Virus record (IMG/VR): IMGVR_UViG_3300027800_000005 | Reading direction: 5' to 3' (one strand) | Length of the DNA: 50,637 nucleotides | Source of the DNA: a virus | The notes under the pieces: model-generated | Told to the model about the DNA's origin: nothing | Seen by the model: the letters and a program-made list of their open reading frames with translations, nothing else | Database searches by the model: none | Made by a program: the position numbers and the translations under genes | Part shown: positions 1,958 through 28,059 of the stretch, one piece after another | Position numbering within the stretch: position 1 is the stretch's first letter | How the letters are laid out: each line of letters starts with the position of its first letter

Positions 1958-2124
1958 AACAGTAGAGGGGTATAGTACTACCATACTTATAGTACCCCTA
2001 CAATGTACTTTAAGCGGCTATAATGGATTTTTCCATATAGTATAAATTGACCGCAACGTCGTTAAACTACGGAGGCAAGTGGAGGCAACCCACGTAAGAA
2101 AAGCGTAGCCGAGAGAGGAGTTAC

Positions 2125-20463: not shown

Positions 20464-20655
20464 ATGTGGAAAAACATCTGGCAGAGGATTCAATCTCCGG
20501 TAGTCATCGGACAAATTGTGACCATCGTAGTCGGTGGGCTTGTTTTGCTGGCACCGCAGGTTGAACCTACAGCAAAAATCATTACAGGAGTAATTATGGC
20601 ATTACTCAACTTATTTGCAGGGCTCAATAATCCGACAGATAAAAAAGACTTCTAG
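20464..20655 (+). CDS. Holin.
   Basis: 63 aa, two hydrophobic segments, charged C-terminus NNPTDKKDF. Adjacent to the endolysin gene. Confidence 0.7.
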   Translation: MWKNIWQRIQSPVVIGQIVTIVVGGLVLLAPQVEPTAKIITGVIMALLNLFAGLNNPTDKKDF

Positions 20656-20736
20656 GAGGTGGTCCAAGTTCTGCAAGCAAAATGAGGGAGAACCCATGGC
20701 ATATTTATAAAAAAAGACAGAAAGGTAAATATCATT

Positions 20737-21045
20737 ATGGATATGGAACTTGTTGCGGTAATAATTAGCAGTGGCGCGATGTCTGCCATTATAGGAGGGG
20801 TTTTCGGTTGTATTCAGAACAGTCGAGGCTGGAAGAAAAAGGTTTTCGGAGTACTACAGATTATTCTATACGACCGAATAAAATATCTTTGTCGAAAGTA
20901 TATAGGGGCGGGCGAGATTTCAGGCGAAGACCTTGAGGACCTAATTATTATGCACAAGAAGTACCATGATGATTTGGATGGCAATGGGTATTTCGATGAA
21001 TTGATGTTGGAGGTGAAAGCCTTAAACAGAACAAAAAAAGATTAG
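20737..21045 (+). CDS. Membrane-anchored hypothetical protein (end of the lysis cassette).
   Basis: 102 aa with one N-terminal hydrophobic helix (LVAVIISSGAMSAIIGGVFGCI). Weak RBS. Confidence 0.5.
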   Translation: MDMELVAVIISSGAMSAIIGGVFGCIQNSRGWKKKVFGVLQIILYDRIKYLCRKYIGAGEISGEDLEDLIIMHKKYHDDLDGNGYFDELMLEVKALNRTKKD

Positions 21046-21054
21046 AAAAAATAG

Positions 21055-21083
21055 TTGACAAGGCATTATATCTGTGATATAAT
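21055..21083 (+). promoter_or_regulatory. Consensus promoter P2.
   Basis: TTGACA 21055-60, 17-bp spacer, TG 21075-76, TATAAT 21078-83. A 7-bp hairpin at 21092-21110 begins 9 nt after the -10 element. Confidence 0.8.
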
Positions 21084-21130
21084 AGCTATAAGAGATGAGC
21101 AAATCGTCTCAAAATTAGGAGGTAGAAACC

Positions 21131-21424
21131 ATGACAATCAAAAATTTGACCATCAACAAACTCACCAATGCAGAGCTTGATGACTTGGGTTGCTTCGGGA
21201 TTGGTATTATGCTTTATGCGGGACAATTGAAAACAATGGTTAAGGGATTCAAAACTTGTAGCCTTGACGGTAACGGAAATATCTCGTTTGAGAACGAGAT
21301 GGAAGACTACAGACATGAGTTTATCAAGACGCTTGATGGATACGCATATCGTATTTACGACCAGATTAGGGGTGAATATTTCAAGCAAGTTCAACCCACC
21401 GAAGGATTGATATTTATTAGGTAA
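21131..21424 (+). CDS. Early hypothetical protein (97 aa), first cistron of ribozyme unit 1.
   Basis: RBS aggaggtagaaaccATG. The stop TAA at 21422-24 lies directly before hammerhead candidate 1. Confidence 0.7.
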   Translation: MTIKNLTINKLTNAELDDLGCFGIGIMLYAGQLKTMVKGFKTCSLDGNGNISFENEMEDYRHEFIKTLDGYAYRIYDQIRGEYFKQVQPTEGLIFIR

Positions 21425-21425
21425 A

Positions 21426-21481
21426 GCCGAAACCGGGGAAACCCGGTCTGCTGAGGAATAACTTCCCAGTACTGATGAGGC
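21426..21481 (+). ncRNA. Hammerhead ribozyme candidate HH1 (stem-II-open, type II topology). Predicted cleavage after C21448.
   Basis: GCC, GAAA (21429-32), stem III CCGGG[GAAA]CCCGG, UC, stem I (21449-71), CUGAUGA (21472-78), GGC. The full conserved core is present in the correct order. Covaries with HH2. Confidence 0.7.
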
Positions 21482-21508
21482 AGGTTAACAAATTAGGAGG
21501 TTGAAACT

Positions 21509-21640
21509 ATGGTATTCGCGATTTTGGTTATTGGCGGGTTGTGTTTTTGTCTTGGTATTTTATATCCATTGATAGCAATTATTGGGTATAAAATATTTGG
21601 TGGCAAGAAGTCTATTGCACAATATATCAAGACTTTGTAA
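21509..21640 (+). CDS. Small hydrophobic peptide (43 aa, not in the track).
   Basis: RBS aggaggttgaaactATG. Sequence MVFAILVIGGLCFCLGILYPLIAIIGYKIFGGKKSIAQYIKTL, with TAA at 21638-40. Confidence 0.55.
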   Translation: MVFAILVIGGLCFCLGILYPLIAIIGYKIFGGKKSIAQYIKTL

Positions 21641-21659
21641 AAAGCAGGAGGTAGAAACT

Positions 21660-21857
21660 ATGGTTCATTATAAATGTCAATTTTGTGGGCAAATGCAACA
21701 CTCCTCAAGCGAAGAAATGGAACAAGAAGGTTGTTTATACTGTGGCAGAATGGCAATAAAAATTGTCAAGGAACAAGACTACAAGAAGAGAATAAAACAG
21801 GAGGCAGAAACCAATGAAAATCTACGAAATAGTGGTTTGCTTAAGGTCGGGAACTAG
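21660..21857 (+). CDS. Zinc-ribbon protein (65 aa).
   Basis: RBS aggaggtagaaactATG at 21660 (the track start at 21582 is upstream of the RBS). CQFCG...CLYCG gives a CxxC-x17-CxxC pattern. Confidence 0.6.
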   Translation: MVHYKCQFCGQMQHSSSEEMEQEGCLYCGRMAIKIVKEQDYKKRIKQEAETNENLRNSGLLKVGN

Positions 21858-23145
21858 TAGTAAGGTTGCACTTGAAATTGTTGAGCAAAATACAAAATGT
21901 CACGAAACACTTCGTTTTCTTTGTAACCCATACATAAAGACAGGGTTGTGCCACGTAAAGGCACTTCATGAAGATTCTTTATTGTGCAGCGATTCGCAAG
22001 ACACCGACTATTTGGTAGAACTTCTTTTGGAGTATTTTTCAAGTTGTGGACCAGATGGTAACAGAGCTGAAAAAGAGGACTATGCAAAGACAATCTACGA
22101 ATACGGCCCGGATGATGAAGACTGGAAGTGGTTCGTTGAATTGGTTGCAACACACGGTAATAGTTCTGCATTTGGTGTAGGTCCACAAACATTAAGAAAG
22201 GCCGGCATTAATGTTCCTAGTTTTGGATGCCAATTGGGTGTTAAACTGCAAGATGTTGGTTCTGATTCTTGGCTTTGTACCAACGGCTACAGACAACATC
22301 ATTGGAGAATTACGGAGAAGATAGACGGAACTCGCAGATTGTTTATCAAGAATAAAGGCAAGGTTGAGGCATATAGTAGGAGTGGTAAAAAAGACGATAA
22401 ACTCAAACACATTACGGATTGGTTTGAGTCGAAAACAATTCCAGACAATAGGATTTACGATTGCGAATTAGTTGATGGTGATATGTATGACAACTGGAAA
22501 GAGGGTTACCAATCTTTTGAATTAAGAGCCAAGTCGATTGGTAAGGCCGCCAGAAAATCGAGCGACAACACATCGTTGATTGCAATATGTTTTGATTATT
22601 ATGACTTTGAAAAACCACATGACAACACAGTCATTCGTACTATTGAACTCAAGAGGATATTCAGAGAAAACCAACAGGATGGTCCAGTTCGACTTGTTAA
22701 GATATTTGGCAAGATGGATGGGTACGAGCGAGACAAACTGGATAGCACGCTCAAAACTGTGCTAGACCGCGGCGGAGAAGGCTTAATGCTTCAAGAACTT
22801 GGCAGTTCGTACGTTTTTGAGAGAACTCCAAACCTTATAAAAGTTAAACGACTGGAAGACTACACGGGAAAAATAGTTAAAGTCGTACCGGGAAGAATAG
22901 GAACGAGATTGGAAAATCTTATGTCTGCAATCCTTTGCGAAGTAGACGGTTGCGATAGTATGGTTTATGTCGGCACAGGACTTAGCGATTATGATAGAGA
23001 ATTATTTGCTAAGTATGCTGACGAACTTATCGGAGCTAAGGTTGAAATAGAGGCATTTTCCAAAACAATAAACAAAGACGGAAAAACATCATTGTGCTTT
23101 CCAGTGTTTAAGAGATGCCACCATAAAATATTTAAGGAGAGCTGA
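21814..23145 (+). CDS. ATP-dependent DNA ligase (nucleotidyltransferase superfamily) with an N-terminal extension.
   Basis: Motif I TEKIDGTR, motif IV GEGLMLQ, motif V LIKVKR. RBS aggaggcagaaaccaATG. Confidence 0.7.
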   Translation: MKIYEIVVCLRSGTSSKVALEIVEQNTKCHETLRFLCNPYIKTGLCHVKALHEDSLLCSDSQDTDYLVELLLEYFSSCGPDGNRAEKEDYAKTIYEYGPDDEDWKWFVELVATHGNSSAFGVGPQTLRKAGINVPSFGCQLGVKLQDVGSDSWLCTNGYRQHHWRITEKIDGTRRLFIKNKGKVEAYSRSGKKDDKLKHITDWFESKTIPDNRIYDCELVDGDMYDNWKEGYQSFELRAKSIGKAARKSSDNTSLIAICFDYYDFEKPHDNTVIRTIELKRIFRENQQDGPVRLVKIFGKMDGYERDKLDSTLKTVLDRGGEGLMLQELGSSYVFERTPNLIKVKRLEDYTGKIVKVVPGRIGTRLENLMSAILCEVDGCDSMVYVGTGLSDYDRELFAKYADELIGAKVEIEAFSKTINKDGKTSLCFPVFKRCHHKIFKES

Positions 23146-23146
23146 A

Positions 23147-23389
23147 ATGGAGAACAAAACATATTCTATCGGAGACACGCTGGCAGTTATGCGTGGTAAG
23201 AAGGCAGTATCATGCCAAGTTATTGAAAAAGGGATTGGCGAAACGAAGAATGGAACTACCATTACGTTTCAAGATGAACAGGTTATTTGGAGATTGGGGG
23301 CTAACAAGAAGTGGCCAAACTTTGTACACCAAGCATTCAGGGGAGAACTAGCCGAAAGGAATGATAACAATGCCGGAACAAAAACCTAA
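23147..23389 (+). CDS. Hypothetical protein (80 aa).
   Basis: RBS taaggagag. Tightly packed behind the ligase gene. Confidence 0.55.
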   Translation: MENKTYSIGDTLAVMRGKKAVSCQVIEKGIGETKNGTTITFQDEQVIWRLGANKKWPNFVHQAFRGELAERNDNNAGTKT

Positions 23390-23900
23390 AAAATTAGTTG
23401 GGTTCAGTGCAGAAAAAATATCAGAACGAGTTGCCAAAGAAGCTATTTTGATGGCATACGAATGTGAGAAGATTTCTGGACAAGAATTACTTAAGGCCGA
23501 TGAATACAAAAACAAAGCATATAAGTACCTCACAAACAAAAACCTGAAACACCTCGATGTAGAGGCTGCAGATAAAACTATAAGATTTCAGTCTGCAGAG
23601 AGAACTAACGTAACATATTTCCTTGATAAACTAAAGCAATCTTTGAGTATGCCTGTTCTACGTGAAGTTGTCATGAAGAAATACGAAGTCAAGGATATCG
23701 AGTTGCTCAAGGCTACAATGCAAAAATACAATGTTCCAGCAGATATTCTGAAAGATTGCTTGTCGATAACAGAAACTGTTGACAGAACAAGAATGGATGA
23801 ATTATTTAAAGCCGGACATATTACTATTGAACAACTGGAAGGTTGTTACAAACTGTCTACGAGCACATCATTAACATTAAAGGAGCTAGATAATAAATAG
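23370..23900 (+). CDS. Hypothetical protein (176 aa; alternative start at 23361).
   Basis: gaaagga lies 9 nt upstream of the ATG at 23370. No motif recognised. Confidence 0.55.
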   Translation: MPEQKPKKLVGFSAEKISERVAKEAILMAYECEKISGQELLKADEYKNKAYKYLTNKNLKHLDVEAADKTIRFQSAERTNVTYFLDKLKQSLSMPVLREVVMKKYEVKDIELLKATMQKYNVPADILKDCLSITETVDRTRMDELFKAGHITIEQLEGCYKLSTSTSLTLKELDNK

Positions 23901-23912
23901 GAGGCAGTAGCC

Positions 23913-24857
23913 ATGACTGATTATAATTCACCAGTGTTTATGGCAAAGGTTCTTGATGCATATAATATAGACTTTACGCAAAACAAGGTTGTTTGTCCTT
24001 TTCATGGTGACGTAAACCCCAGTATGAGTATTGACTTGGCAAAAAGCAGAGTATATTGTTTTGGGTGTCAAAAATCATATAGTGCTACACAATTCATAGA
24101 GGCTGCCGAACCAAAGATGAATAGACTACAAGTTTACAAGCGTATGGCAGAGATAGAAAACGGCATCAAGATTGACCTTAAACCACAACATATCAGAAAC
24201 AATAGTGATTGTGATTTCGTACAGTTGAGAATACAAGCAGAAGATTACTACTATAATCTACCAAAAACTGATTGGGCACATGGTGAGTGGACAGAAGAGC
24301 TTGACTATATGACCAAACGTGGTTTTACTACAGAGATTCTGAATAAATGTGGAGCTAAACTAAACTACAATGGCTGGTACCCGATTATTTTTCCTATAAT
24401 GGATAATGGAAAATTTAAAGGTTGGGTTTGTAGAACTACCAGAAAAGATATAGAGGCAAAAAGAAAGTACCTATACAATACTGGGTTCAGACGTTCTACG
24501 TGCGTGTGCGGGCGATACAACAGGGACAACCAGCTAATCGTAGTCGAGGGGTATATGGATATGCTTAAACTAAGGCAAGCAGGACTGACAAATGTTGTTG
24601 CATTGCTTGGTTGGAAGGCTAGTCAAGAGCAGGTTCAGATGATTAAAACTGTAGGCATTAAACACATTATTTCTGCATTGGACAATGACGAGAGTGGAAT
24701 TAAGGGCGATGCACATTTACGGACTTTAGGATTCGATTCAGTAGTGCGATGGCAGTTTGGTGCAGGCCATAAAGACCCTGGTGACCAGACAGCTAGCGAA
24801 ATAAAAAATATTTATAAAAAACTAAAAATAAGTGTTGACAAAGCAAATCGGATGTGA
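23913..24857 (+). CDS. dnaG: DNA primase (CHC2 zinc finger + TOPRIM).
   Basis: CPFHGDVNPSMSI....VYCFGCQ zinc finger. TOPRIM motifs VVEGYMD and DNDESG. Confidence 0.85.
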   Translation: MTDYNSPVFMAKVLDAYNIDFTQNKVVCPFHGDVNPSMSIDLAKSRVYCFGCQKSYSATQFIEAAEPKMNRLQVYKRMAEIENGIKIDLKPQHIRNNSDCDFVQLRIQAEDYYYNLPKTDWAHGEWTEELDYMTKRGFTTEILNKCGAKLNYNGWYPIIFPIMDNGKFKGWVCRTTRKDIEAKRKYLYNTGFRRSTCVCGRYNRDNQLIVVEGYMDMLKLRQAGLTNVVALLGWKASQEQVQMIKTVGIKHIISALDNDESGIKGDAHLRTLGFDSVVRWQFGAGHKDPGDQTASEIKNIYKKLKISVDKANRM

Positions 24858-24863
24858 TATAAT
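24835..24863 (+). promoter_or_regulatory. Consensus promoter P3, overlapping the primase 3' end.
   Basis: TTGACA 24835-40, 17-bp spacer, TG 24855-56, TATAAT 24858-63. An 8-bp hairpin at 24872-24894 begins 9 nt after the -10 element. Confidence 0.8.
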
Positions 24864-24915
24864 TGATATAGAGATTGAGGATTGCACTCAATCTACTACG
24901 TAGGAGGTAGAAACC

Positions 24916-25203
24916 ATGAAAATTTACAAACAAGCTGTCATCGAGCTGGACTTTCCAGAACGTCCAGAACTTCATTCCATTGTTACCTTTACCTTGACGG
25001 ACTCAAAAGCGTTTCAGTACGGAAACCAGACTATCTTGCTGGTTGACCAGGTTTGCGAAATGCCGGATTTTAATGAACAGAAAGCAATCGACACGCGGTA
25101 TTCGGACATTAGCAATTTTGATAAACTGTGCTTGGATTGGTTGAAACACGAAAAGCTCAAGCACACGGCCAAAGTTCTGATTAGCTCCAAAAAGCTCTGG
25201 TAA
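24916..25203 (+). CDS. Early hypothetical protein (95 aa), first cistron of ribozyme unit 2.
   Basis: RBS aggaggtagaaaccATG, identical to that of 21131. Confidence 0.7.
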   Translation: MKIYKQAVIELDFPERPELHSIVTFTLTDSKAFQYGNQTILLVDQVCEMPDFNEQKAIDTRYSDISNFDKLCLDWLKHEKLKHTAKVLISSKKLW

Positions 25204-25218
25204 AATCGAATAAGCAAA

Positions 25219-25272
25219 GCCGAAACTGGGGGTAACCCCAGTCTACTGGATATATACCAGTACTGATGAGGC
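25219..25272 (+). ncRNA. Hammerhead ribozyme candidate HH2 (stem-II-open). Predicted cleavage after C25243.
   Basis: GCC, GAAA (25222-25), stem III CUGGGG[GUAA]CCCCAG, UC, stem I UACUGG[AUAUAUA]CCAGUA, CUGAUGA (25263-69), GGC. Confidence 0.75.
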
Positions 25273-25293
25273 AGAAAACAGGAGGTTGAAACT

Positions 25294-25470
25294 ATGACAC
25301 ATGCAGTAGGAACTAGGACAAGCGTTCGTGGTAACATGAGGGTTTATCTGGCAATAAAAAAACAAATTGACACATTGAGATACCTTGGTATTAAGCTGGG
25401 GAAAACCTGGTTTATACATATTTATTTTAAGGGAGGCTACCTACTATGGCAGTTAAAGTCGGGTTGCTGA
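25294..25470 (+). CDS. Small hypothetical protein (58 aa, not in the track).
   Basis: RBS aggaggttgaaactATG, identical to those of 21509 and 40732. Open to TGA at 25468-70, overlapping the next gene start. Confidence 0.45.
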   Translation: MTHAVGTRTSVRGNMRVYLAIKKQIDTLRYLGIKLGKTWFIHIYFKGGYLLWQLKSGC

Positions 25471-26234
25471 GTGCAATCAAAAAAGACGTCGAGAAAACTG
25501 GTTCTAGCAGAGGCAAATTCTTCTATGTCAAGAGCGGAGCTAAAGCGAGAATTCGTTTCTTGGAGGACATGGACAACGGCAGGGTTGTGCATATGCATGA
25601 CAGATGGGACCCTCAACTGAAGGTACCGTGTGAGAAGAACCGAGACGAAGACGCAGAATGCCGTTATTGCGGCGTTGAAGGAGTTAGAAACAGAGATACC
25701 TATGCATGGTCGGTATGGGACTATGATGCGAACGAAGTCAAGATATTCATGTACCCGGCTAATCAGTGTACACCGGTACCTGGATTGGTTGCATTGTACG
25801 AGACGTACGGCACTATCATTGACAGAGACTTCAGTGTTTCGCGGTCTGGGAATGGTACGGCTACATCGTATAGCCTGATACCGCTTGACAAGACAAAATT
25901 CAGAAACGAAAACGCCAAACCGTTTACTGACAAACTGTTTTGGAAGGCAATCAACGACGGCTATCCCGCACCTGATGGCGAAAAGGCCGAGGTTGAGGAT
26001 GATGAAGATGAAAAACCTGCAAAGGTAAAACCGGCTCCTGATAAAACCGAAAAGGTTCTCGCAGATGCCGAGGAAACCAGCTACGAAGATATGACTCCGA
26101 AGGAATTATATTCGTTGTGCAAGGTTCGTGACATCTTAGTAAAGACTCAGATGGAGGCAGAGTACTACATCAAAAAGCTTGAGAAATATGACCTTGAACA
26201 CGGTGACGATGAGTTCTGGGGAGACGACGAATAG
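25446..26234 (+). CDS. T4 gp32-like zinc-containing single-stranded DNA-binding protein.
   Basis: The spacing H-x13-C-x9-C-x2-C (HMHDRWDPQLKVPCEKNRDEDAECRYCG) reproduces the gp32 His64/Cys77/Cys87/Cys90 zinc-ligand spacing. Acidic C-terminus EFWGDDE. Confidence 0.6.
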   Translation: MAVKVGLLSAIKKDVEKTGSSRGKFFYVKSGAKARIRFLEDMDNGRVVHMHDRWDPQLKVPCEKNRDEDAECRYCGVEGVRNRDTYAWSVWDYDANEVKIFMYPANQCTPVPGLVALYETYGTIIDRDFSVSRSGNGTATSYSLIPLDKTKFRNENAKPFTDKLFWKAINDGYPAPDGEKAEVEDDEDEKPAKVKPAPDKTEKVLADAEETSYEDMTPKELYSLCKVRDILVKTQMEAEYYIKKLEKYDLEHGDDEFWGDDE

Positions 26235-26272
26235 CAATATTCGATTTGAAAAACAAGAAAGGCAGATGACCT

Positions 26273-26704
26273 ATGGCAACAGAATTGAAAATCATTATGG
26301 AAAAGAAACCGGAGAATGCAAAGGAGCTAGGTGAACTGATTACTAAGATTACCAATCAGTTTATCAAAGAGTACGGAGACGAAAAATCGCACAATGACAA
26401 CTTGTTCGTTTTGTGCGGTTGTCAGAATGGAGATACTATTGAAGATGGCAATAATGTGGCCACACCTATGGATATAGCGCAGATTATGTTTTGTAAACAT
26501 GGTGTGGCAATTGATGTTTTGCTTCAGTGTATCGGTGCATGGAGAAAAACATCACCTATGTTGTATCTGGACTTTTTGGCTAAGCTCTTTTCTTTTCTTG
26601 ATAAAGAAACCTCGACAGAAGAAAAAATGTTTTCTGCGATTTTGAGAGGTGACGACAAGAGAGGAATATCGGAGCTTATTGATAATTTGCTGGAAGGAAA
26701 GTAA
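26273..26704 (+). CDS. Hypothetical protein (143 aa).
   Basis: ORF in the operon context. No motif recognised. Confidence 0.5.
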   Translation: MATELKIIMEKKPENAKELGELITKITNQFIKEYGDEKSHNDNLFVLCGCQNGDTIEDGNNVATPMDIAQIMFCKHGVAIDVLLQCIGAWRKTSPMLYLDFLAKLFSFLDKETSTEEKMFSAILRGDDKRGISELIDNLLEGK

Positions 26705-26708
26705 CCCA

Positions 26709-27026
26709 ATGAAAGGTTTATTTGCGAGACAGAAAGTATTTCAGAGCAAGGTTTCGCATAAACCATTGCCGATTGACAGCTCACCGGATTTTTCATATCA
26801 TATGTGTTTAATGATAGAAGAACTCGGTGAGCTGGCCAAAACCGACAAACGGTGGAGAGCATCGGATGGTTTAGAGACTAAACCGAGTGGCAACAAACTT
26901 GATGAAATTGCTGATGTTTTCATTGTGGCTATGAATTTGGCAATGTATAGTGGTTACGAATATGAAGACGTTGTGCAGGCTATCACTAATAAGATTTCAA
27001 AAAACGAAGGGAGACTACCTAAGTGA
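26709..27026 (+). CDS. MazG-like all-alpha nucleoside triphosphate pyrophosphohydrolase.
   Basis: MIEELGELAKT and DEIADVFIVAMNLA match the EExxE...D metal-binding helices. The ATG at 26709 lies just after the upstream stop. Confidence 0.65.
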   Translation: MKGLFARQKVFQSKVSHKPLPIDSSPDFSYHMCLMIEELGELAKTDKRWRASDGLETKPSGNKLDEIADVFIVAMNLAMYSGYEYEDVVQAITNKISKNEGRLPK

Positions 27027-27472
27027 TTGATATGGAGGAAGAAATTAAGTACGATTTCTACTTTGCTAGCCCGTTTTTTAATGAGGAACAGGTTGAACGG
27101 GAAGAAGCGTTGAAGAAGATACTCAGAGATAAAGGCTACGTTGTCTTCAGTCCGAAAGAGGCAGTTTTCTTGAAGCCAGATGCATCACAGGAGGAACAAG
27201 CAGAGTGTTTCGCCAATAATCTTGACGGAATTATGATGTCGAAAGCTGTATTTGCAATTACCAATGGTAAAGACATGGGTACTATATGGGAGGCAGGCTT
27301 TGCTTATGGTATAGGCAAGCAGATTGTTTACTTTTGTGAAGGCCTTCCAACTGGTGCCCAATTCAATTTAATGCTCGCTCGTTCGGCATCCAGTGTATTT
27401 ACTTCAAGGGACGACGTTATTGCTGCAAAGGATGTTCTTGAAAAAACTTGGTATAAGGGGCTAATTGAATGA
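27023..27472 (+). CDS. Nucleoside 2-deoxyribosyltransferase family protein.
   Basis: FYFASPFFNEEQ and GTIWEAGFAYGIGK motifs. Start uncertain (GTG at 27023 or ATG at 27032). Confidence 0.7.
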   Translation: MIDMEEEIKYDFYFASPFFNEEQVEREEALKKILRDKGYVVFSPKEAVFLKPDASQEEQAECFANNLDGIMMSKAVFAITNGKDMGTIWEAGFAYGIGKQIVYFCEGLPTGAQFNLMLARSASSVFTSRDDVIAAKDVLEKTWYKGLIE

Positions 27473-28059
27473 ATACAGTAAAATCAGATTACCAACTTTC
27501 GGACATAGGCAGAAAAATATATGAGGTGTTTGGTGAACCGATAGTTGGACTATCAGGAATAACACGGTTTAGTAGAAGACTCAAGGTTAGAGATGAGAAC
27601 GTAGCAGAGCACATGTGGTATGTTTCATTCATAACATTGCAATTGTGCAAGATTTTGTGTGTCAATGATAATGTTACTAATCTTGCATTAAAATATGCAA
27701 TATGTCATGACGTTCCAGAACTAGTTCTTGACGATGTGAACCATGACGTAAAGGAGAGATTTCCAGGGATTAGGCAGTCGCTTGAAGGCGAAGAAGAGGT
27801 TTTGTTTGGTATGTTGGGTGAAGATATTAAGGCAACCCACATTCCTACAGACAGCAGAAACCACAAGATTGCAAAACTAATCGTTGACCTTGCTGACGTA
27901 CATTCGGTTGCTATGTATATGTTTTCTGAAATAAACTTAGGAAATATGTATTTTAGCAACGAATACGGAGAACCAATAGCGAGGATAAAAGAGTTGGAGA
28001 ATGAACTATGGAGGGTTTTGGATTATGGCAGTGAAGCTGACAAAGACATCCTATGGTGA
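27469..28059 (+). CDS. HD-domain phosphohydrolase (5'-deoxynucleotidase YfbR-like).
   Basis: NVAEHMWYV (His) and ICHDVPELVLDD (HD) motifs. Confidence 0.65.
   Translation: MNTVKSDYQLSDIGRKIYEVFGEPIVGLSGITRFSRRLKVRDENVAEHMWYVSFITLQLCKILCVNDNVTNLALKYAICHDVPELVLDDVNHDVKERFPGIRQSLEGEEEVLFGMLGEDIKATHIPTDSRNHKIAKLIVDLADVHSVAMYMFSEINLGNMYFSNEYGEPIARIKELENELWRVLDYGSEADKDILW

Follow-up and report, generated by a model that had tools for sequence, protein, structure and literature searches.

A type II hammerhead motif without the usual pseudoknot between two early genes of a tailed phage, and its probable role in messenger RNA processing

What does a compact, self-complementary element do between two small open reading frames (ORFs) in the replication region of a tailed phage? 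The question is raised by the IMG/VR virus record IMGVR_UViG_3300027800_000005, a stretch of 50,637 nucleotides (nt) that is called the window throughout, in which a first-pass annotation had read positions 25219-25272 as a second self-cleaving hammerhead RNA (HH2), besides a first one (HH1) at 21425-21489. In this work, we find that HH2 is a genuine type II hammerhead motif, for which a chance match is effectively excluded, and we consider it probable that it lies within an early messenger RNA (mRNA), which would cut itself there and so uncouple an accessory gene from the replication genes. Intercistronic mRNA processing is the most likely role of HH2, although several observations, above all the loss of a tertiary contact, weigh against it and are discussed below.

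The whole-window scan with the Rfam 15 library returned only two matches above a curated threshold, both to Hammerhead_II (RF02276) and both on the + strand, namely HH1 (41.3 bits) and HH2 (25218-25280), whose 40.1 bits exceed the gathering score of 37 and whose E-value is 8.5e-5. Neither other ribozyme classes, even in a permissive Rfam scan, nor tRNA genes were found in the window. The positions given to the parts of HH2 in the first-pass annotation agree base for base with the window sequence, and all of them lie on the + strand. The outermost helix is an open stem II of three base pairs (bp), formed by GCC (25219-25221) and GGC (25270-25272), which is not extendable, as A25218 faces A25273. 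Next come the core nucleotides GAAA (25222-25225; G12, A13, A14 and A15.1) and the stem III hairpin (25225-25242), which comprises 7 bp (ACUGGGG/CCCCAGU) and a GNRA loop, GUAA (25232-25235); its seventh pair, A25225-U25242, is the 15.1-16.1 pair and lies beyond the helix CUGGGG/CCCCAG (25226-25231/25236-25241). The stem I hairpin (25244-25262) has 6 bp (UACUGG/CCAGUA, 25244-25249/25257-25262) and a 7-nt loop, AUAUAUA (25250-25256), and it is followed by the core CUGAUGA (25263-25269; C3 to A9), the 3' strand of stem II, and a 3' tail, AGAAAACA (25273-25280), which stands at the position of the pseudoknot partner in the family and is not complementary to loop I of HH2. The predicted scissile bond joins C17 (25243) to U1.1 (25244), as placed by the GUC triplet of the hammerhead consensus. 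Because the standard hammerhead cleavage site is 3' of C17, the cut is expected between C25243 and U25244, which would leave an RNA 5' end at 25244.

The RF02276 core is complete in HH2, including C3-A9, G12, A13 and A14, the A15.1-U16.1 pair, H17, and the G10.1-C11.1 pair (G25270-C25221), and the helices are arranged in the type II permutation, with GCC/GGC outermost, stem III capped by GUAA and stem I capped by AUAUAUA. Every defining feature of the family that is open to a sequence test is present, and the pseudoknot typical of the family is missing. Two matches to the core pattern CGAAAC..GTC..CTGATGAG are present in the window, and 100 dinucleotide shuffles contain none. In the computed fold of 25214-25285, the minimum free energy (MFE) structure and the centroid are both the three-way junction, at −22.7 kcal/mol with a z-score of −2.98. 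A covariance model termed R1, built from 25 unrelated phage hammerheads, gives HH2 48.5 bits and HH1 61.5 bits, and the alignments of HH2 to the Rfam and R1 models show the three helices as well. With an Rfam score above threshold, an intact core and the junction as MFE structure, the hammerhead identity first proposed is borne out, and it is the type II form specifically.

Type II hammerheads between phage genes have been known since 2011, when Perreault et al. described them together with their pseudoknot; several of them flank prophage genes, and polycistronic RNAs are cut in vitro and in E. coli (PMC3088659). To place HH2 within this family, IMG/VR was scanned with a pattern in which only the core and a GCC/GGC stem II were fixed, giving at least 120 loci, and together with metagenome scans at least 282 distinct sequences were obtained; all counts of family members in this text are among the matches listed. 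Both stems are paired over at least 4 bp from the junction in 228 of these 282 sequences, a pairing that the pattern does not demand. Among the 198 phage and metagenome type II hammerheads with enough flanking sequence, an ORF stop codon lies no more than 20 nt upstream (median 1 nt) in 93%, compared with 15% of random positions, and a Shine-Dalgarno (SD) sequence with a start codon lies no more than 40 nt downstream (median 25 nt) in 77%, compared with 14% of random positions. This placement is shared by HH1, with distances of 1 and 27 nt, and by HH2, with 15 and 21 nt.

The family also bears the marks of a selected RNA structure. In the gapless alignment of 25 unrelated members from which R1 was built, picked by length and core only, 93% of cells are paired compared with 75% in shuffles, 13 pairs are changed on both sides, and covariation is strong in stems I and III and in the pseudoknot between loop I and the tail. 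R1 in turn matches 164 hammerheads in 100 sources. In 145 distinct sequences, 99.4% of cells are paired compared with 67% in shuffles and 611 cells carry double changes, in an alignment which, being fitted to the R1 model, leans toward structure. The argument of the first-pass annotation that a conserved core with covarying stems points to a selected RNA structure holds between HH1 and HH2, between HH2 and the related copy described below, and across the family.

Two sharp architectures stand out among the viral hammerheads with a GCC/GGC stem II (loci L002-L121). In the first, stem I measures 21-24 nt (22 in most cases), the tail is of the AG or AA type, and 52 of 62 members have a pseudoknot. 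The second combines a uniform 17-nt stem I (6 bp and a loop of 5 nt, frequently UNANG) with C or U tails, and 39 of 45 members lack a pseudoknot. In many phages, neighbouring small genes are each separated by a hammerhead, in arrays of 5 to about 10 copies that span a few kb, as at L013, L004, L022, L091, L025, L090 and L082. In addition, the hexamer CAUCAG is found in the tail, no more than 25 nt past stem II and mostly immediately after it, in 7 of 107 viral hammerheads (e.g., L014, L050, L088, L111 and L121), all of the short-stem-I class; it is complementary to CUGAUG of the core, and the resulting hairpin could exclude the active fold after cleavage.

Within the window, HH1 offers the nearest comparison. 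Its module consists of a promoter (21055-21083), a 97-amino-acid (aa) ORF (21131-21424), HH1 itself, a ribosome binding site (RBS), and a 43-aa ORF (21509-21640), with 1 nt between the upstream stop codon and HH1 and 27 nt from HH1 to the downstream start codon. HH1 and HH2 share this layout of a perfect promoter, a hairpin in the 5' untranslated region (UTR), an ORF of about 96 aa, the hammerhead, the sequence AGGAGGTTGAAACTATG, and a small ORF, and the 97-aa ORF of the HH1 module is unrelated to its 95-aa counterpart at HH2. The two hammerheads have the same core and closing pairs, and the helix differences are those noted before: a C-G pair in stem III of HH1 is U-A in HH2, HH2 has an additional G-C pair, and stem I differs in length and loop. 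The claim that both share one topology stands for the three-helix type II form and fails for the pseudoknot. In HH1, stem I is 23 nt long and contains a bulged A, and there is a canonical 6-bp pseudoknot, UAACUU (21459-21464) with AGGUUA (21482-21487), which falls in the canonical register of the R1 model alignment, whereas HH2 has neither. The identity of core and flanks is likewise real, but the flanks (AAAGCC../..GGCAG) are the consensus of the whole family and not specific to this pair. A specially close kinship of the two was considered and rejected: HH2 scores 39 against HH1 and 37 and 33.5 against unrelated hammerheads, and the related copy described next is more like HH1 than HH2.

A search with blastn of 20500-27500 against 50,697 annotated phage records gave just a 114-nt primase match and no annotated relative. 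Relatives found through the SSB-like protein (gene at 25446-26234, +, the first conserved gene downstream of HH2) form a group of phages of about 50 kb. Some of their contigs were binned in Clostridia metagenome-assembled genomes (Ruminococcus, Lachnospiraceae and Oscillospiraceae), and therefore the host is probably a member of Clostridia. The closest relative found is L247, a 3-kb metagenome contig (Ga0131853_10152933) with an SSB-like identity of 73%, which carries a hammerhead at the HH2-equivalent position (934-1004) that scores 38.6 bits in Rfam, above threshold, and 43.5 bits with R1. The order on L247 is a promoter at the primase 3' end, a 95-aa ORF, the hammerhead, an RBS, a 115-aa ORF, a strong hairpin, and the SSB-like gene. 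Compared with HH2, this copy has AAC/GUU in place of GCC/GGC in stem II, the allowed triplet GUA, C-G for U-A once in stem III and once in stem I, an HH1-like 23-nt stem I, and a 5-bp pseudoknot (GAGCU:AGCUC). Across HH2, the L247 copy and HH1, 5 pairs differ in both partners and every cell of stems I-III is paired (100%); the lone unpaired cell is that of HH2 in the pseudoknot helix. Aligning homologues and examining their stems for covariation had been put forward as the check on HH2, and the changes in L247 turn out to be compensatory, in line with the double changes of the family.

Neither of the ORFs beside the L247 hammerhead resembles those of the window. At the DNA level, L247 and the window are alike only in the primase and SSB-like genes, in the promoter, and in a stretch of 41 nt with 78% identity that comprises the hammerhead's 3' half and the RBS. 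As judged from these comparisons, the hammerhead fold is maintained at the HH2 site through substantial divergence. Further copies of this lineage were sought with the pattern CAGTACTGATGAGGCAG..AGGAGGT, which had no matches in viral contigs; a broader metagenome pattern matched many type II hammerheads, none of them, among the matches listed, close to HH2 apart from its own contig, and none of the hammerhead-bearing loci from the pattern scans is related to this phage by tblastn.

The genomic setting of HH2 is that of an early operon. The window represents approximately the complete genome of a tailed phage, and almost every gene is on the + strand. Terminase and portal genes lie at 43.6-47.5 kb, genes for head and tail at 0.7-19.7 kb, and lysis genes at about 20 kb; the replication module, from 21 kb, contains the SSB-like gene, genes for ligase, primase and a Pol III alpha-type polymerase, and genes of nucleotide metabolism. 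HH2 lies on the strand of all its neighbouring genes and between two ORFs, starting 15 nt past the stop codon of the upstream 95-aa ORF (ORF95, 24916-25203, +) and ending 21 nt before an SD-led ATG. The downstream unit (25281-25470, +) consists of the RBS AGGAGG (25281-25286) and a 58-codon ORF with its ATG at 25294, which overlaps the start of the SSB-like gene; it opens with the 17-mer AGGAGGTTGAAACTATG, identical to the 17-mer after HH1. The 58-codon ORF is absent from the JGI gene calls, and its codon-usage score is in the coding range and far higher than that of out-of-frame windows. No Pfam or PHROG family was found for any of the four small ORFs beside HH1 and HH2. Among 5.8 billion proteins, the sole match of ORF95 was itself, with otherwise weak remote matches and no relative of known function.

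Upstream of ORF95, a consensus sigma-70 promoter, P24835 (TTGACA-17-TGnTATAAT, 24835-24863, +), matches the consensus at 12 of 12 positions, 355 nt upstream of HH2, and is conserved at the same position in relatives. It is followed by a 5'-UTR hairpin (24872-24894, +; −13.3 kcal/mol, z −3.0), no terminator-like sites were found between it and HH2, and it is the sole strong promoter ahead of the SSB-like gene. Judging from this arrangement, P24835 should drive a transcript that runs through ORF95, HH2, the 58-codon ORF, and the SSB-like gene.

From the motif, fold, position, compensatory conservation and missing pseudoknot of HH2, we infer how transcription, cleavage, the fates of both products and a reduced rate may combine. 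The transcript would begin at P24835, perhaps joined by read-through from upstream, and would span ORF95, HH2, the 58-codon ORF, and then the SSB-like and replication genes. As soon as transcription has passed the second strand of stem II, the three-way junction could fold and the RNA would cut itself between C25243 and U25244, with the 2',3'-cyclic phosphate and 5'-OH ends established for products of the class (PMC8782182). The upstream product would be an ORF95 message of about 370 nt, stop codon included, whose 3' end would be formed by the stem III hairpin (7 bp, GNRA loop) and a 2',3'-cyclic phosphate. The downstream product would carry a 5'-OH and be base-paired from its first nucleotide in the stem I hairpin, as it is in the computed fold of its 5' end, followed by an 18-nt spacer and the phage consensus RBS. 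The processed downstream RNA would mimic the hairpin-spacer-RBS layout of several primary 5' UTRs, since at least 5 of 9 primary 5' UTRs of the phage have a hairpin near the presumed 5' end, similar to that of the HH2 downstream product. As a net effect, the accessory gene and the replication genes would no longer be tied to each other in message stability and translation, and slower cleavage at HH2 may make this processing partial and not complete. A long-range pairing of the ORF95 3' end with the RBS across HH2, seen in a 121-nt fold, was dropped as a further ingredient (z −1.7, no counterpart at HH1).

Several observations weigh against this reading, and most of them concern the pseudoknot. 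In the family, loop I pairs over at least 4 bp with the 4-6 nt after GGC-A in 148 of 183 members with an A-initial tail, and most hammerheads with an AG tail (119 of 160) have a stem I element of 22 nt. In HH2, this element is 19 nt long, three loop I positions of the model are deleted, and the tail reads AGAAAAC. No pseudoknot forms because loop I is shorter and the tail is non-complementary: the longest Watson-Crick run between them is 2, which is among the two lowest of the 183 A-initial-tail members, and HH2 is the sole AG-tail member with a 19-nt stem I that has no run of at least 3 bp, the five others having 3-4 complementary bases each. The region of the start codon, the 5' flank and the distal part of the tail were inspected by eye for other partners of AUAUAUA; the strongest candidate, UAUG at 25292-25295, offers a 4-bp A-U/G-U pairing outside the canonical geometry and was rejected as too weak. 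By mutagenesis, the pseudoknot is needed for fast cleavage at physiological Mg2+; when it was shortened or removed, the observed rate constant fell about 20-fold to more than 100-fold at 0.5 mM Mg2+, the loss of more than 100-fold on removal being measured in a construct with a 1-bp stem II (Perreault et al., PMC3088659). Given its lost pseudoknot, HH2 probably cleaves more slowly than HH1. Moreover, in the MFE structure of the 121-nt context, the 3-bp stem II is swapped for other pairings.

Two further points against concern the fate of the product and the distribution of the element. In Firmicutes, a ribozyme-made 5'-OH can attract RNase J1, as known from glmS (PMC3328962), which would mean that the downstream RNA is destabilised, unless the terminal hairpin blocks the enzyme. 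However, the SSB-like gene has no strong promoter ahead of it other than P24835, which is also kept in relatives, so that the downstream product would have to stay usable, and this argues for protection over a decay of the glmS type; protection by the terminal hairpin is the likelier outcome. In addition, no hammerhead was found at 11 other closer-relative loci, within the DNA fetched, nor in 96 more distant relatives, within 2.5 kb of the SSB-like gene. Because it is missing from these loci, the hammerhead is, as far as the compared sequences tell, a recent feature of a small subclade and dispensable for the wider phage group.

The alternative with most in its favour, which we nevertheless regard as unlikely, is that HH2 is intact in sequence and crippled in rate. 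On this account, a deletion of 3-4 nt in loop I and replacement of the tail removed the pseudoknot, and the element now cleaves too slowly in the cell to serve as more than a relic or a structured intercistronic spacer. The loss itself, as read from the copies aligned, is a derived state, because HH1 and the same-position copy of L247 have canonical-register pseudoknots of 5-6 bp, whereas the complementarity of loop I and tail is gone in HH2; its R1 score lies 13 bits under that of HH1, and removal of the pseudoknot costs a rate factor of more than 100 at the Mg2+ concentration cited above. On the other hand, nothing is damaged in the core, in the three G-C pairs of stem II or in stems III and I, which are perfect over 7 and 6 bp, and the changes relative to HH1 and L247 are compensatory and not disruptive, with stems I-III fully paired. 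Minimal hammerheads, too, still cleave, at lower speed. In the large pseudoknot-free class, whose stem I measures 17 nt, as many as 8 copies are maintained in one array, and the pseudoknot, though frequent in the family, is therefore not obligatory in nature. A related idea turns the loss into an advantage: a pseudoknot-less HH2, kept at a fixed junction amid gene replacement, would be both a processing site and a recombination linker, and losing the contact would be an adaptive tuning rather than decay, leaving cleavage partial or dependent on conditions such as Mg2+ or translation. We regard this idea as rather doubtful.

A different and improbable explanation is that the block of hammerhead and RBS serves mainly as a conserved junction for the exchange of accessory cassettes, a function with which ribozyme activity would be compatible. 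Here, the ribozyme core and the consensus RBS would provide recombination homology, and the flanking genes would be swapped. The window and L247 are indeed similar in promoter, hammerhead 3' half with RBS, primase and SSB-like gene, with unrelated ORFs in between; a different small ORF stands between promoter and SSB-like gene in each relative examined; and small genes in the L013, L091 and L025 arrays are each bracketed by near-identical hammerheads. But just two genomes carry the block, relatives free of hammerheads swap the ORF equally, so that the promoter and a hairpin before the SSB-like gene suffice as boundaries, and the compensatory stem changes indicate selection on RNA structure and not on DNA identity. 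As to the interval itself, in the syntenic loci L123-L126, L248-L251, L348 and L349 (SSB identity 56-65%), the promoter at the primase 3' end is kept wherever the region is on the contig and is followed by one variable small ORF or none. The interval from the primase 3' end to the SSB-like gene thus holds a different small ORF or none in each genome compared (the window, L123-L126, L247-L251, L348 and L349), and it is apparently a hot spot for accessory genes without known relatives. Hammerheads were seen only in the two genomes with two accessory ORFs between promoter and SSB-like gene, which makes two cases only.

It is highly improbable that HH2 is a functional stand-in for an intrinsic terminator or attenuator that relatives carry before the SSB-like gene. 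The idea draws on a hairpin with a U tract just upstream of the RBS of that gene in 8 of 10 relatives read, namely L124 (5943-5962), L125 (5980-5997), L126 (5954-5971), L248 (about 345-378), L249/L250 (L249:5948-5973), L251 (about 417-445) and L348 (about 812-838), with none in L123 and L349. The hairpins of L124, L125 and L126 fold at −10.6 to −12.3 kcal/mol, while the counterpart in the window (25396-25410) is weak and G-U rich, at −4.6 kcal/mol with a z-score of −0.6. Nevertheless, L247 has the hammerhead and a strong hairpin (1369-1395; −17.4 kcal/mol, z −4.1), so that the two are not alternatives and a replacement of one by the other was rejected; HH2 is also located between two ORFs, some 150 nt before the hairpin site. 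Finally, a chance match to the hammerhead consensus, for which only the shortness of the motif speaks, has practically no probability left in view of the E-value against all of Rfam, the empty shuffles, the two coding-strand copies that are both exactly intergenic, and the L247 copy at the same position with compensatory changes.

Set beside known systems, HH2 as a putative processing element is a further member of a known family in a known context, thousands of phage hammerheads being already known. With the type II hammerheads of RF02276 it shares the CUGAUGA/GAAA/GUC core, an open stem II of 2-3 bp, capped stems I and III, the flanks A-GCC/GGC-AG, an intergenic location in a phage polycistronic unit, and more than one copy per genome; the difference is that most members have the pseudoknot between loop I and 3' tail, and this absence is the only unusual trait of HH2. 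The prophage hammerheads of D. vulgaris, three of which were found to cleave in vivo by Olzog et al. in 2021 (PMC8782182), belong to the same Rfam family and to a similar neighbourhood of phage genes, but they come from a different host phylum and their activity is shown, whereas that of HH2 is predicted. The glmS ribozyme is likewise a self-cleaving mRNA element whose 5'-OH product decides the fate of the downstream message (PMC3328962); it differs in having an unrelated fold, cofactor dependence, a location in the 5' UTR and destabilisation as outcome, whereas HH2 lies between cistrons. Minimal laboratory hammerheads resemble HH2 in having the core and three helices with no recognisable tertiary contact, but they are engineered truncations, while HH2 is a natural copy whose relatives keep the contact between stem I and stem II.

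Processing of polycistronic transcripts was suggested as a function of such hammerheads in a 2019 review, their purpose being formally unproven (PMC6765202). HH1 and the L247 copy at the HH2 position, both with a pseudoknot, and HH2 without one form a natural experiment in defined contexts. With these three copies, one could gauge the weight of the tertiary contact in a real mRNA and examine whether phage hammerheads serve to divide polycistronic mRNAs into parts that differ in stability, an idea as yet unproven. For ribozyme biology, the lost pseudoknot and the persistence of the junction despite gene replacement are worthwhile details, which open no new question.

Some minor observations were made elsewhere in the window and its relatives. 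In the replication region of a distant relative, IMGVR_UViG_2799112331_000003, a tRNA gene (66 bits) is located at L001:3837-3908 (+). The window contains ten near-consensus extended −10 promoters (TTGACAAAG..TGATATAAT), all on the + strand, compared with 0.6 expected by chance, at positions 1929, 21055, 24835, 26773, 35851, 39019, 40658, 46010, 48001 and 48528; at least five of them are followed by a stable 5'-UTR hairpin a few nt past the presumed start and then by AGGAGGT[TA]GAAAC[CT]ATG. Between the first of these promoters (1929-1957) and the head scaffolding gene (2125-2742) lies a sub-threshold match to the GP20-b RNA (RF03003) at 2048-2107 (+), with 33.8 bits against a gathering score of 36.2 and an E-value of 0.0012.

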